A DNA stretch of 64,000 nt from sequence record PX418213.1. One strand, 5' to 3'. The position numbers were made by a program, and so were the translations under genes. Under the pieces are notes generated by a model, which saw nothing but the letters and a program-made list of their open reading frames with translations, was not told the DNA's origin and did not search any database. Origin of the DNA: a phage. Shown here piece by piece: positions 3,165 through 40,396 of the stretch. Each line of letters begins with the position of its first letter. The stretch's first letter is position 1.

Positions 3165-3410
3165 TTAACTAATAGGCATCAGGCTAGAACTAACACCGCA
3201 AACAACGGCGGCAATAAAACAAATCAGGCCCAAACGCTTCGCTAACTTAGATTTGCGTTTAAAATAATACGAATCTAAATCATTTTGAAAATATGCGAAC
3301 AATAACGAGGCCGCCACAATAAATAGGCCTAAAATTAAGGATTCAGTAGGAAAGAAAATCATTTTAATAACTCCAATTAAAGGGAAATTATAGTGGGGAA
3401 TAATCCCCAC
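3165..3410 (-). CDS. small membrane protein
   Basis: 81-aa ORF with two hydrophobic segments. Confidence 0.5.
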   Translation of the reverse strand: MGIIPHYNFPLIGVIKMIFFPTESLILGLFIVAASLLFAYFQNDLDSYYFKRKSKLAKRLGLICFIAAVVCGVSSSLMPIS

Positions 3411-5076: not shown

Positions 5077-5275
5077 CTACTTATTTTATGAAATAAATTA
5101 ATTGACTTTTATTTGCTAGTATGCATCGGAAAGATAGCAGACTAATAATTGCTAGGATGATGATCATGCTGGTGGATTGTAACGGCCTGAATTATTAGCA
5201 GACTGTTAATCAGGGAAAATCTCATTAGCCAACTAACTATTTCATGATATATAATATACTTATAAATTAATGAGA

Positions 5276-35296: not shown

Positions 35297-35374
35297 TGGT
35301 GGCTCCCCGAGGATTCGAACCTACGTACCTTCCGGTTATGAGCCGGGTGCTCATACCATATGAGCTTGAGAACC
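35297..35374 (-). tRNA. tRNA, anticodon CAT (Met/Ile2)
   Basis: acceptor GGTTCTC/GGGAGCC with G-U pairs; loop CTCATAA; T-stem has mismatches. Confidence 0.5.
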
Positions 35375-35484: not shown

Positions 35485-35513
35485 ATTATATTAGAAATTT
35501 AGCTTCATAGCAA
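35485..35513 (-). promoter_or_regulatory. T5-type promoter upstream of tRNA-Ser(GCT)
   Basis: TTGCTA, 17 bp, TATAAT. Confidence 0.6.
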
Positions 35514-36060
35514 GAAAATTTTTCAAGTTTTCGGTAGACATCTCATCCATATCTACGGGAGAAACAAAGCCGTTTAATTTTCTAGCAAATTTTTCACCTG
35601 CAGGGTCATTATCCCCAACAGCTACCAATTTAAAAGGTAGTAATTTCAGTTGCTTTAATAATGCTTTTCCTGGAGAAGAACCCAACATTGCCAGGGCTGG
35701 ATAACCAGCGTTATGTAGCGCCACTGCCTTAAATACAGACTCAGCAATCAATACTACTTTTTCATCTCCATTGAGAGTTTCTAGTCCCCATACACACTGG
35801 GTAGTAGAATAAGTAAAATATTTAGCTTCAAAGGGGCACTTACCATGACCTTTTGGAGCAGAAGGATTATAAGTTTGATAGCCCCTCAACATCCCAGAGA
35901 AGTCATACAACGGGACTGTTAGCCATCCTTCCGGACTTAACCAGCAATGATATTTATCTGTATCAAATCCTCTAGATAAGAGGTGCTGTGTTAGCTCATC
36001 AACATTCATATTTGGTTCCTCTCTCAAATTTATAGATATATTATACTGAGAATTTAGCAT
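35491..36060 (-). CDS. Toprim-domain protein (primase-like fragment)
   Basis: VLIAESVFKAVAL...VAVGDNDPAGEKF resembles DnaG-type Toprim E...DxD motifs; only 189 aa. Confidence 0.55.
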   Translation of the reverse strand: MLNSQYNISINLREEPNMNVDELTQHLLSRGFDTDKYHCWLSPEGWLTVPLYDFSGMLRGYQTYNPSAPKGHGKCPFEAKYFTYSTTQCVWGLETLNGDEKVVLIAESVFKAVALHNAGYPALAMLGSSPGKALLKQLKLLPFKLVAVGDNDPAGEKFARKLNGFVSPVDMDEMSTENLKNFLAMKLNF

Positions 36061-36068: not shown

Positions 36069-36184
36069 TCAAATTTTTTAACTTTTTAGAGGAAAATCAT
36101 AGGGCACTTAAGGGTAGCAGATAAGTGGTGAGGACCAAAATTTGTGACCCCACTAAAAATTCAGGGGCAATTTTTAAAGACCCC

Positions 36185-36213
36185 TTGACATTTTCGCTGG
36201 GGTAGTGTAAAGT
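36185..36213 (+). promoter_or_regulatory. sigma70-type promoter for plus-strand three-gene module
   Basis: TTGACA (36185-36190), 17-bp spacer, TAAAGT; AGGAGG RBS before 36266. Confidence 0.4.
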
Positions 36214-36265
36214 ATATGTTATGGATGAGTGATCAAAGAGACACACATTTTCTATATACTAGGAG

Positions 36266-37261
36266 GTGTCAAAAATGACAGAAGAAGTAGCTAAGAGTCC
36301 TGAGACCGTCGCTAGCGTTGCAGCAGAACTGCACCGTCACGAGGAATCAGATAAGAAAAAGTGGGAGAAGGTCAGAGCCTACGAAGAAAAACATCGTGAA
36401 CACGATGATGAAGAAGATGACGATGATGAACATTGTCATAAATATGGAAAACATAAAATGCAAGAACCAGTAAACGTATTTACTAGTGGCTTCCCTGGCC
36501 TACTGGGTGGTTACCCAGCAAACGCAGGTGCTTTCGGTGGTGAAGGTATGGGACTATTCGGAGCTATCCTAATCGGTGCTCTATTAACAGGCGGATTCGG
36601 TGGATTCGGTGGATTCGGTGGACGTGGTATAGTTGGTGAAGGTACCGCAGTTGATGCAGTACTTCAGAACCAAGATACCGCTAGTATTCTAGCAGCTATT
36701 AACACTACTCGTACAGAAGCTAATCAGGGTACTGGGGCTGTTTTAAGCGCAGTTAACAATGGTTTTAGCCAGACATCCCAAAACCAGAGCCGTGATACTC
36801 AGTCTGTACTAACTACGATCTATGGTACAGGTGCTAATCTGTCTAATCAGATCTGCCAGGAAACTCGCAATGTTATTCAGGGTCAGTTCGATCTTTCTCG
36901 CCAGATTGATCAATCTTTCGCAGCTAATCAGATAGCTCGTGCACAAGATAAGTTTGATTCTGCACAGATCGCTTTCCAGCAGACTTTACAAACTAATAAC
37001 CAGTTTGCCGCTGTTCAGGCTCAGATGTGTGCTAACCAGAACTCTCTGGAACGTCAGATCGCTGAATGTTGCTGTGAACTTCAGACTGCGATCGCTGGTG
37101 TAACTACTGCGCGTATCCAGGATGAGTTAGACGCATGTCGCCTACGTGAAGCAATCGCTGCGGGTAGCGGTGCTAACGGTCAGGTAATTAATCAAATCGC
37201 TTTAAGTCTTGGTGCTATCACTCAGACTCTGGCTGGTCTGCAGGCTAAACTGCCGGCTTAA
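36266..37261 (+). CDS. glycine-zipper membrane protein with Q/N-rich coiled-coil-like tail
   Basis: 331 aa; His/acid-rich N-terminus (HREHDDEEDDDDEHCH); GLFGAILIGALLTGGFGGFGGFGG; long Q/N/S/T-rich region with ECCCE. Confidence 0.6.
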   Translation: MSKMTEEVAKSPETVASVAAELHRHEESDKKKWEKVRAYEEKHREHDDEEDDDDEHCHKYGKHKMQEPVNVFTSGFPGLLGGYPANAGAFGGEGMGLFGAILIGALLTGGFGGFGGFGGRGIVGEGTAVDAVLQNQDTASILAAINTTRTEANQGTGAVLSAVNNGFSQTSQNQSRDTQSVLTTIYGTGANLSNQICQETRNVIQGQFDLSRQIDQSFAANQIARAQDKFDSAQIAFQQTLQTNNQFAAVQAQMCANQNSLERQIAECCCELQTAIAGVTTARIQDELDACRLREAIAAGSGANGQVINQIALSLGAITQTLAGLQAKLPA

Positions 37262-37282
37262 TATTAAGGGGAGGAGCCCATT

Positions 37283-37699
37283 ATGAGTAAATATGGTTTT
37301 GTAAATAACGGACTTAATCAAAGTATGGGCTCCCAGCAGCCCGTTCCGGGTCTGGATAACCCCTACTTACAACAGTTGCAACAGCGTTTAGCAGAAGCGC
37401 AACAGATGCAGCAACAACTCCAGCAAAACCCTGGAAGTGTAAGTCCTATGCAAATGATGCAGCAAATGAGCGGGCAGTCGCAAATGTCTCAACAAATGCA
37501 GCAACAGATGCCGCAGCAGCAAGTTCAACAACAAACCCAACAACCGCAGGTTTCTGCGGAAGGACAGGCAGTACTAGCCCTTTTCGAAGACTTCGCAAAG
37601 ACAGAGGATGGGAAACAGCTTGTATCACTTATGGGTAAGTTTAATAGCTTCTGCCAAAGCCAAGTTGCAAAAGCTCAAAATGGTGGTAATAACTCCTAA
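37283..37699 (+). CDS. Gln/Met-rich low-complexity protein
   Basis: 138 aa; central QQLQQRLAEAQQMQQQLQQ...QQMQQQMPQQQVQQQTQQPQ; GGAGG RBS. Confidence 0.55.
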   Translation: MSKYGFVNNGLNQSMGSQQPVPGLDNPYLQQLQQRLAEAQQMQQQLQQNPGSVSPMQMMQQMSGQSQMSQQMQQQMPQQQVQQQTQQPQVSAEGQAVLALFEDFAKTEDGKQLVSLMGKFNSFCQSQVAKAQNGGNNS

Positions 37700-37708
37700 G
37701 GAGAAATT

Positions 37709-37903
37709 ATGTGTTGCAGAAAATCTGTTTCGTGCTGCCCAATGCCTGTAGCACGTTGTTGCTCTCCAGCAATGTTTACGCAAATACCGGCGTTCAATCC
37801 GTTTGCCTTTAAGCCTACTCTTATCCTGCCCCCTAGAGTGGATTTTCAGTCAAGATTGGCCTCCCGTATGGGTGGTTGCTGTACACCGAGAGTGTGGTTC
37901 TAA
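37709..37903 (+). CDS. small Cys-doublet-rich peptide
   Basis: 64 aa with four CC doublets (MCCRKSVSCCPMPVARCC...GGCC); AGGAGA RBS; followed by terminator. Confidence 0.45.
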   Translation: MCCRKSVSCCPMPVARCCSPAMFTQIPAFNPFAFKPTLILPPRVDFQSRLASRMGGCCTPRVWF

Positions 37904-37913
37904 ACCAAAAACA

Positions 37914-37950
37914 AAAGCCCCTGCCGAAAGGTAAGGGGCTTTTTCTTTTG
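37914..37950 (+). terminator. rho-independent terminator
   Basis: AGCCCCT...AGGGGCT hairpin followed by TTTTTCTTTT. Confidence 0.65.
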
Positions 37951-37959
37951 CCTTAAATA

Positions 37960-37994
37960 CAGAAAAGCCCGCGCTCTCGGAGGAAACGCGGGCT
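37960..37994 (-). terminator. rho-independent terminator for SPFH gene
   Basis: GCCCGCG...CGCGGGC hairpin with U-run on minus strand. Confidence 0.6.
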
Positions 37995-38018
37995 TGGTTC
38001 GAAGATTACGTGTAACTA

Positions 38019-39599: not shown

Positions 39600-40396
39600 T
39601 CTAAGTATTTTTAAGAATTCTCATAAAAACTCTTAAAAATACAGACGATACCGGGAGAGTCATAAGTCTCACTCATTAAGTATTTCAAGACAAAATACGG
39701 TAACGTCTATTATTTTCCAGTTTAAGTCAGGGTGACTTAGTGGTTATGTCCTGCGGTATATTGAGGACTCGGTTAGGCTTGGGGTCATGACTTCCCACCT
39801 TTTGCTGCTACTCAACAGGAGTTATCGCGAATTACCTGTGCTATTGTGCACCATTAGTGACATCTCTCATGTCAGCATTTCCCACTTTGTGGATAGCTTG
39901 AAAAACTACTCCGATATGGAGAAAGAACTTCACTATCCTAGAATACCTTCTAAAGTTCTTCTTTAGCCTGGACATAGTTAAATCGTAATAAAACTATTCA
40001 GCAGACTGGTTGGTTAGTCTGGAACCAACTACCGCGTGGTTTAGGCAGTGCGCAACTAACCTCGGAAGCTTTTACGTTAAAAGCACCAGTTATCCAGTTC
40101 TTACCGACCGTAGGATTCGAACCTACATCTTCCACCAGTTACGACTTGATAATACCAATTATACTAGGACGGCAGTGTTACTACATAAGTGATTTCCACA
40201 CCCCACTATTTATAAATTAGAGAAGAGTTTAGGGGAGAGGTTTCAGACGCCTCATTTTACACGTTCTAGCCACTAACCGGGATTGCCGCCCCCTGTGTAC
40301 TAGTTTTACAACTAACCCACCGACTCTATTCAATGCGCTCCGCTTGGGATTCTGCACTCAGCGTAATCGGCTCGCTGTTCCCTAATTTATGAATAT
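39600..40396 (-). ncRNA. about 800-nt non-coding transcribed region with degenerate tRNA-like element
   Basis: no ORF of 60 aa or more; lies between promoter 40397-40425 and gene 39084-39584; T-loop GGTTCGAATCC at 40113-40123 with imperfect acceptor. Confidence 0.3.

Follow-up and report, generated by a model that had tools for sequence, protein, structure and literature searches.

Morons are autonomous accessory transcription units, defined for lambdoid phages such as HK97. Several counter-defence factors have recently come from the tRNA-rich region of the model phage T5: Rad, tRNA-Tyr, and tRNA-Lys (against PARIS). A preprint describes Rad as an inhibitor of retrons, whose non-coding RNA it degrades, and places it within an 8-kilobase (kb) 'anti-defence island' that is spontaneously lost from laboratory stocks (bioRxiv 10.1101/2023.03.15.532788). 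The subject here is a block of three genes (g1, g2, and g3) next to the gene for Rad, at positions 36185-37950 of a phage DNA of 64,000 nucleotides (record PX418213.1, one strand; the whole stretch is referred to as the window). Genome comparison identifies this block as an autonomous accessory operon of the 'moron' type, with its own predicted sigma-70 promoter and terminator.

A 1.9-kb query spanning the block matches 388 phage records at 80-99% identity, every one of them T5-like (Demerecviridae, genera Tequintavirus and Epseptimavirus). The block is the only plus-strand unit in this region; the neighbouring genes and the 20 tRNA genes that surround it are all on the minus strand. An earlier reading made from the letters alone (the sequence-only reading) had described just such a block with its own promoter, ribosome-binding sites, and terminator. 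All of these elements are found, and GenBank agrees: AJ604531 (the tRNA region of Salmonella phage 5) and NC_005859 (T5) already mark a promoter P12, open reading frames (ORFs) of 327, 138, and 64 amino acids, three ribosome-binding sites, and a bidirectional terminator (ter1). The T5 names are T5.077 (g1), T5.078 (g2), and T5.079 (g3), all products being labelled 'hypothetical', and most other GenBank records annotate two genes only and omit g3. As a sequence feature, the module is not new, since P12, T5.077-079, and ter1 have been annotated for about 20 years. It is nearly certain that T5.077-T5.078-T5.079 form a genuine, separately transcribed, and oppositely oriented operon, the features of which are as follows.

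36185..36213, plus strand: promoter P12, sigma-70-type (-35 TTGACA, 17-nucleotide spacer, -10 TAAAGT; 10 of 12 consensus positions)
36214..36274, plus strand: 5' untranslated leader of g1 (Shine-Dalgarno AGGAGG at 36262-36267)
36275..37261, plus strand: g1 (T5.077), 328 amino acids, ATG start; phrog_8119, E = 4.2e-204 (residues 1-328)
36548..36625, plus strand: codons of the putative glycine-zipper membrane segment GMGLFGAILIGALLTGGFGGFGGFGG of g1, from hydropathy and glycine pattern
37067..37075, plus strand: Cys triplet C265-C266-C267 of g1, within QIAECCCELQ (ECCCE = residues 264-268)
37283..37699, plus strand: g2 (T5.078), 138 amino acids; phrog_7894, E = 1.7e-79 (residues 1-138)
37709..37903, plus strand: g3 (T5.079), 64 amino acids; net charge +7, 12% Cys, 14% Pro
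37733..37882, plus strand: g3 core with unusually low synonymous divergence (dS 0.03-0.125)
37913..37950, both strands: Rho-independent bidirectional terminator ter1 (hairpin 37913-37943, A-run upstream, U-run downstream)
36120..37935, no strand: segment missing in module-less T5-like relatives, from comparison of the flanks (about 70 nucleotides retained)

The TTGACA at 36185 from which the sequence-only reading had deduced a promoter lies inside the annotated P12. The promoter is the best-conserved portion of the block (column identity 0.98-0.99 among the T5-like phages), and a similar one (TTGACA-17-TAGAGT) is found at the equivalent place in a divergent T5-like contig (L018, 43% amino-acid identity). 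The sequence following the -10 element is ATATG; an ATATT discriminator has been reported for T5 early promoters (PMC7472727), and the divergent promoter P15A is an experimentally verified early promoter. The pattern suggests that P12 resembles an early-class T5 promoter. The g1 leader is 98-99% identical across the T5-like phages, a conservation exceeding that of the coding sequence. In its lowest-energy fold, CAUUUUCU pairs with the Shine-Dalgarno AGGAGGUG, which recalls fourU RNA thermometers; this hairpin is weak, the folding energy being no better than that of shuffled controls (z = -0.46). The ribosome-binding sites of g1, g2, and g3, predicted to be strong, are AGGAGG, GGAGG, and AAGGAG, 6-8 nucleotides 5' of each ATG. 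The terminator proposed at 37914-37950 is likewise borne out: the ter1 hairpin with its U-run has a folding energy of -22.5 kcal/mol (z = -3.84), and GenBank calls it an efficient bidirectional terminator. An A-run precedes the hairpin and a U-run follows it, and therefore it should act in both directions. A simple terminator scan omits ter1, because its loop-length limit shuts out the unbroken stem there. The guanine-plus-cytosine (GC) content of the genes (46.5% in g1, 45.8% in g2, and 48.7% in g3) differs from the 39.4% of the window and the 38-40% of the flanking genes.

Among about 396 T5-like records, g1 is present in about 223, with g2 and g3 in about as many, so that about 44% are without the cassette; about 170 further T5-like records match only about 60 nucleotides 3' of the block. 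In TrudiRoth and rokbiter, about 70 nucleotides lie between the left flank, which ends at 36119, and the right flank, which begins at 37936; part of this stretch matches the last codons of g3 at 27 of 32 positions. This remnant of g3 at the joint indicates that the absence of the cassette is a secondary deletion. A sequenced stock of phage BF23 is reported to be without five genes, ORF071-075, Rad among them (PMC10644984); by position, these would be T5.076-T5.080. An older 14.5-kb BF23 record of the tRNA region (L029) still has g1 and g2, and the laboratory stocks of BF23 seem to differ in this deletion. Among the BASEL phages, Bas26 and Bas27 have the cassette and Bas30 does not. Comparison of these genomes shows that the cassette is dispensable for lytic growth.

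The cassette is also found outside the T5-like phages. The order g1-g2-g3 recurs in a contig with an N4-type giant virion RNA polymerase (L019), with minus-strand genes on its flanks, in the 63-kb Pseudomonas phage RSP (L013), where it adjoins the large terminase gene and has a terminator 3' of g3 as well, and in contig L020. In AT-rich phage contigs, g1 is again paired with a g2-like, Gln-rich gene, and no g1 homologue is found in the plasmids searched. Because the cassette is present in unrelated phage groups, we infer that it has probably moved by horizontal exchange between unrelated phages with Gram-negative hosts. In RSP, near-identical hairpins GCCCTGGAG(A/T)AATCCGGGGCTT at 3169-3196 and 5156-5181 flank the cassette. 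These may be terminators that were duplicated, or a trace left by the recombination event that brought the cassette in.

The g1 ORF noted by the sequence-only reading is real, but not the start that gave it 331 amino acids: the GTG at 36266 falls within the Shine-Dalgarno AGGAGG, and the annotated start in the records of T5 and phage 5 is the ATG at 36275, which gives 328 amino acids. The product has, in order, an N-terminal helix (residues 10-41), a variable acidic and His-rich linker, the motif MQEPVNVF, a glycine-zipper anchor (about 92-117), a helix (135-325), and a conserved C-terminus (NGQVINQIA.SLGAITQTLA.LQAK). The His- and acid-rich N-terminal part, the glycine zipper, and the ECCCE motif that had been described are thus all present. 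The hydrophobic segment, GLFGAILIGALLTGGFGGFGGFGG, has a Kyte-Doolittle maximum of 1.72 in a 19-residue window and 2.07 in a 15-residue window. In GMGLFGAILIGALLTGGFGGFGGFGG, G3, A7, G11, T15, G19, and G23 are in register, a small residue at every fourth position over about six helical turns, and the glycine positions are invariant in the alignment of homologues (A1). Nearly all homologues with the anchor have an acidic residue before it and an Arg after it. By the positive-inside rule, these flanking charges weakly favour a cytoplasmic location for the C-terminal rod.

The most conserved part of g1 is the Cys triplet. In an alignment of 60 close and distant relatives, C265, C266, and C267 are the sole invariant columns, with the consensus Q.AECCCE.K followed by RLR.AL. 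A DNA pattern derived from the motif found over 600 matching stretches in the viral contigs of IMG/VR. About 30 close homologues were collected, all from phage-sized contigs, and an exhaustive profile search added about 100 distant relatives. Pfam and NCBIfam contain no family that covers the latter; PHROGs assigns them to phrog_16490 and related unknown-function groups, and phrog_16490 also touches the Cys-triplet region of g1 itself. Many relatives are without the hydrophobic segment, and therefore the conserved core of the family is the Cys-triplet helix. As judged from these alignments, g1 belongs to a large viral family defined by three invariant cysteines.

Some members of this family have Arg/Ser-rich tails, apolipoprotein-like repeats, or poly-Gln neighbours (L036, L037; P0069, P0113, P0114, P0121, P0057), and the N-terminal part of one resembles, by eye, an mRNA-capping enzyme. 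Such members suggest viruses of eukaryotes, in which case the motif would span phages and giant viruses. In four IMG/VR contigs (L033, L034, L035, L038), Firmicute-type relatives (phrog_16490) lie in a conserved block of genes of unknown function, in the order phrog_21718, phrog_22984, the Cys-triplet protein, phrog_20016 (small and beta-rich by eye), and later DUF7841. These relatives are without g3 and end in Cys-rich tails such as NPNCYGSCAGCGSY; that the tails are a fused equivalent of g3 is speculation.

With the 60-sequence alignment, AlphaFold2 models g1 at a predicted local-distance difference test score (pLDDT) of 70.5, as compared with 47.7, a poor model, from a 16-sequence alignment. 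The better model has the helix 10-41, a disordered acidic and His-rich linker, a short hydrophobic helix, and an unbroken helix at 135-325 (about 190 residues, about 28 nm), in which the pLDDT reaches 95. A lone helix of about 28 nm, if the model holds, would imply self-association. The sequence-only reading had noted a Q/N-rich tail and allowed for a membrane-active or aggregation-prone effector set. The tail is not a disordered, aggregation-prone region: it is predicted to be one continuous helix and is under purifying selection. The proposal is thus supported in part, the glycine-zipper segment making a membrane-associated role plausible. Foldseek comparison of the g1 model against the PDB gives no characterised homologue, just vimentin at E > 1, because the model is one long helix.

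The g2 product was described as a protein of 138 residues dominated by Q/M low complexity, and it indeed contains 28% Gln and 8% Met, with 11 Met in runs of the MQMMQQM type. Its N-terminal helix (NPYLQQLQQRLAEAQ) is followed by a Gln/Pro/Met-rich linker that varies and then by a conserved C-terminal domain with one conserved Cys (pattern LFE(E/D)FAKTEDGKQLVS.(I/M)GKFN.FCQS). This domain is kept as LFEEFAKTEDGKQLVS.IGKFN.FCQS in the T5-like, N4-like, RSP, and L020 copies. Among eleven T5-like genomes, in which the synonymous divergence (dS) of g1 and g2 is 0.1-1.2, the ratio of non-synonymous to synonymous divergence (dN/dS) is 0.12-0.18 for g1, 0.09-0.20 for g2, and 0.01-0.08 for the C-terminal domain of g2 in divergent pairs. 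Therefore, both proteins are under clear purifying selection (dN/dS 0.09-0.20). Several GenBank records (among them STWB21, ESCO30, ESCO40, and HMD-P4) label g2 'cAMP-dependent protein kinase catalytic subunit'. Pfam and NCBIfam find no kinase domain in it, and the label is read as a probable poly-Gln artefact.

The g3 product has, as the sequence-only reading described, 64 residues with four Cys-Cys doublets (residues 2-3, 9-10, 17-18, and 57-58); it starts with MCC and carries FNPF centrally. The g3 ribosome-binding site overlaps the stop codon of g2, and no PHROG contains g3. The ORF is intact in 11 of 11 T5-like sequences inspected directly, the changes at its ends preserving the frame, while the other reading frames of the region are broken by stop codons in relatives. 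Directly 3' of the g2 homologue, a small ORF is also found in L018, L019, L020, and RSP, on contigs ranging from 42% to 57% GC. All four start with MCC and have a second Cys-Cys, and FNPF is exact in two and degenerate in the other two. With these distant cassettes as the decisive evidence, g3 is to be regarded as a real gene, the sequences pointing to a conserved 'MCC...CC...FNPF' peptide family.

The core of g3 is unusual in its low synonymous divergence: in divergent pairs, its dS is 0.03-0.125, as compared with 0.26-0.64 for g1 and 0.8-1.2 for g2, and its synonymous diversity is below that of every 50-codon window of g1 and g2 among 19 distinct sequences. Identity of at least 95% is found for the g3 core in 217 of 222 records and for the end of g2 in 194 of 220; the effect is real but moderate. 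RNA folding of g3 (z = -1.9 and -1.1) is no better than that of the g2 control, and the region has no Rfam match. At the variable ends of g3, two or three forms are seen, whose independent assortment indicates recombination within the gene. A recent sweep is one possible cause of the low synonymous change in the core; an additional function at the nucleotide level is another.

The sequence-only reading could match the architecture to no phage module. This stands insofar as no characterised family is found by Pfam, NCBIfam, PADLOC, PDB, or Foldseek searches, but not insofar as the block was already annotated. Pfam, NCBIfam, and PADLOC return no family for g1, g2, or g3, just below-threshold low-complexity matches such as RIFIN. 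PHROGs gives the full-length matches of g1 (phrog_8119) and g2 (phrog_7894), both of unknown function, and a PDB sequence search with the g1 family profile gives no match. By Pfam and NCBIfam, there is no enzyme domain in g1 or g2 and no secretion or immunity domain in g1-g3, and g2 and g3 have no export signal and no hydrophobic segment. The idea of a cysteine-rich peptide with accessory proteins, taken as a modified-peptide cluster, fails, g1 and g2 being without enzyme domains.

With regard to the neighbourhood, the divergent upstream gene (35491-36060, minus strand, 189 amino acids) encodes a TOPRIM protein (Pfam), which is Rad; its PADLOC match, a weak one, is to a DnaG-like model from a defence reverse-transcriptase system. 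In the Epseptimavirus genomes, the left neighbours are nicotinamide adenine dinucleotide (NAD)-salvage genes in place of Rad. The right neighbour, an SPFH/Band-7 membrane protein gene, stays where the cassette is lost. The terminator hairpin of this minus-strand gene (37965-37995) holds a GCGC motif at 37971-37974, and the corresponding GCGC of T5 (NC_005859, 39746/7) is annotated as a 'major DNA single-chain interruption', a T5 nick site; the end of the module thus probably adjoins a genomic nick site. Two minus-strand Rfam tRNA-like matches (35300-35374, 40.3 bits; 40102-40173, 35.5 bits) are called by ARAGORN in neither case, and the former coincides with a tRNA-Ile(CAU) annotated in the phage 5 record. 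Around the distant relatives of g1, other kinds of genes are found. The relative in L017, of the phrog_16490 type, adjoins a holin-like gene with two transmembrane segments; the relative in L015 is two genes from a Peptidase_M15_3 endolysin; that in L014 precedes small proteins with multiple transmembrane segments; and that in L035 is near an amidase-like gene. Some others are 3' of tail-fibre-like genes in late operons, and for several more the contigs are too short to reveal the surroundings.

The reading favoured here, with a rough probability of 0.4, is that g1, g2, and g3 form a dispensable and mobile inner-membrane complex with a role in conflict at the cell envelope; its functional part is a best guess, while the genetic description is near certain. 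The three products would act as one complex, in which g1 would be anchored through its glycine-zipper helix and its long helix (about 190 residues, about 28 nm) would self-associate into a parallel coiled-coil rod. Cysteines of all three proteins, namely the invariant triplet of g1, the one conserved in g2, and the doublets of g3, may provide a thiol-based joint (either a metal site or a disulphide or redox link), which would hold or switch the assembly. The rod would probably point into the cytoplasm, because g2 and g3 are without export signals. Early in infection, the complex may exclude competing phages or blunt a host defence acting at the envelope. A conflict role is proposed because Rad, phage tRNAs, and NAD-salvage genes adjoin the cassette, and because it is repeatedly lost, in nature as well as in culture, and has spread across phage families. 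A role in replication, virion assembly, or lysis proper is unlikely.

Several points weigh against this reading. The 90-residue N-terminal part of g1 contains 12 Lys/Arg and would be hard to export, which opposes a cytoplasmic C-terminus. The His-rich and Met-rich tracts that suggest metal are not conserved outside the T5-like phages, and the holin and endolysin neighbours of the distant g1 relatives point towards lysis. That the three proteins interact physically is suggested solely by their conserved adjacency. PADLOC and the other libraries are silent, and what speaks for a conflict role is solely the neighbourhood and the pattern of presence and absence. The searchable literature on T5.077-080, ORF072-074, and the ECCCE motif gave no experiment and, for T5.077-079, no transcript or protein data; the readable transcript and proteome reports on T5-like phages omit these genes.

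Other functions have to be weighed. In lambda, the spanins Rz and Rz1 provide a parallel: an anchor followed by a coiled coil with Cys recalls the i-spanins, and the Pro/Cys-rich g3 recalls the o-spanins. Together with the gene neighbours of distant relatives (L014, L015, L017, L035), this resemblance might suggest that g1 and its partners tune the timing of lysis or act on the envelope, as a holin regulator or a spanin-like connector. Such a lysis accessory is, however, unlikely, since the cassette is in the early/tRNA region with an early-looking promoter, the 44% of relatives without it lyse normally, g3 has neither signal peptide nor lipobox, and the T5-like phages already have their own holin and endolysin, as well as an i/o-spanin pair, at other loci (PMC4342426, PMC6658699). 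As a candidate, spanin identity itself is rejected on account of this separate pair (PMC4342426, PMC6658699) and the lack of a lipobox in g3. Equally improbable is a membrane-active toxin or host-takeover effector, in which the zipper of g1 would make a pore or depolarise the membrane and the Gln/Asn-rich parts would aggregate. The small residues at every fourth position over about six turns and the 28% Gln of g2 are in keeping with it, and glycine zippers are reported to be needed for the toxicity or translocation of several bacterial toxins (PMC10240207, PMC10434224, PMC12744356). On the other hand, the Gln/Asn-rich part of g1 is predicted to be one ordered helix under purifying selection, many Cys-triplet members are without the hydrophobic segment, so that the conserved function should not be pore formation, and neither an immunity gene nor a secretion domain is found by Pfam or NCBIfam.

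Vicinal cysteines are found in mercury and copper proteins, and each of the three proteins has at least one conserved Cys; some g1 variants carry HHYHHHHHEH tracts, g2 has Met runs, and g3 is 12% Cys. The cassette could accordingly bind or sequester Zn, Cu, or Ni through the His and Cys of g1, the Met of g2, and the Cys of g3. This has a low probability, because the His tract is of variable length and is missing from the L018-type, N4-type, and RSP copies, the Met-rich runs become Pro/Gln in other g2 copies, and no metal-binding family is matched in Pfam or NCBIfam. Vicinal cysteines also typically bond between chains, with collagen III and poxvirus A27 as models. A minor virion or fibre-like component, a coiled coil stapled by inter-chain disulphides at these cysteines, would agree with the predicted single helix of about 28 nm and with the distant relatives that follow tail-fibre-like genes in late operons. 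It is nevertheless very unlikely: g1 has a hydrophobic anchor, the cassette is dispensable and lies in the early region with a promoter of its own, neither g2 nor g3 has an export signal, the cytoplasm of E. coli is reducing, and g1-g3 are not among the T5-type virion proteins in PMC3326045, which covers the four major proteins only. Finally, the g3 region might be chiefly an RNA or DNA site, with the 64-codon ORF incidental. Its core has a synonymous divergence about 5-20 times below that of g1 and g2, the lowest in comparison with the 50-codon windows, and most gene callers skip the ORF. Nonetheless, this deserves very little credence against the small ORFs with MCC, a second CC, and an FNPF-type motif that follow g2 in four further cassettes, which differ widely in GC and sequence, the intact frame in all 11 T5-like sequences with its frame-preserving end changes, folding no better than in the g2 control, and the lack of an Rfam match. 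It is possible that g3 acts both as a protein and as a signal in RNA or DNA, or that the region underwent a recent recombinational sweep.

The inner-membrane complex may also be cast more boldly: as the first case to be recognised of a new and widespread viral membrane system, made of a Cys-Cys-Cys coiled-coil rod, a Gln-rich adaptor, and a Cys-doublet peptide, that is switched by thiols or metal and decides phage-phage or phage-defence conflict at the envelope. It would have relatives in the hundreds in phages of Gram-negative and Gram-positive bacteria and possibly in eukaryotic viruses, and g3 would have an added nucleotide-level function that suppresses synonymous change. In this full form the proposal is doubtful. 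Adjoining Rad, the conserved, mobile, and uncharacterised T5.077-079 are candidates for the next function in the island, and Bas26 and Bas27, with the cassette, and Bas30, without it, form natural isogenic-like pairs. A further outcome is a large viral protein family defined by one invariant Cys triplet, together with evidence that the 64-codon gene missed by most annotation pipelines is real.

Compared with known systems, the cassette shares single traits with several and departs from each of them. The catalogued defence and anti-defence proteins have no homology to g1, g2, or g3 by PADLOC, Pfam, and NCBIfam. The clusters for ribosomally synthesised and post-translationally modified peptides (RiPPs) differ in that g1 and g2 have no modifying-enzyme domain, g1 being predicted to consist of a membrane anchor and a single helix. 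Holins usually have fewer than 150 amino acids, one to four transmembrane helices, and a charged C-terminal tail, and are not matched by g1, with 328 amino acids and one hydrophobic segment. With the glycine-zipper toxins (for example, Tde1 of the type VI secretion system, and TelE and EsxX of the type VII secretion system), g1 has in common the repeated small-residue pattern in a hydrophobic segment, but the likeness spans about 25 residues only, g1 has no secretion domain or immunity gene, and the conserved core of its family is the Cys-triplet helix and not the zipper. As in the two-component spanins (Rz/Rz1), g1 has one anchor followed by a long Cys-bearing helix, with the small Pro/Cys-rich g3 close by; however, g3 starts with MCCRKSVSCC and has no hydrophobic signal region (maximum hydropathy 0.85) and no lipoprotein signal, the cassette is outside the lysis cassette, and g1 is twice the size of an i-spanin, with a 90-residue N-terminal domain before the anchor.

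Further likenesses are to the T5 anti-defence island and the morons. The genes of the island and the tRNA-rich region include Rad, tRNA-Tyr, and, against retron Ec83, ORF71/72 or ORF72/73. Rad adjoins the cassette, which is likewise dispensable, deleted in laboratory stocks, and variably present, although it has no sequence relation to Rad or to the defence and anti-defence proteins listed there. In common with morons, the cassette has its own promoter and terminator and runs against the neighbouring gene flow; it is present or absent among close relatives, deviates in base composition, and is common to unrelated phages. In contrast, classical morons are expressed from a prophage and benefit the lysogen, whereas the cassette is in a strictly lytic phage, and its absence is a secondary deletion rather than the ancestral state. 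What is new here in comparison with the existing annotation is a mobile and repeatedly lost three-protein cassette of the Cys-triplet family, beside a known counter-defence gene.

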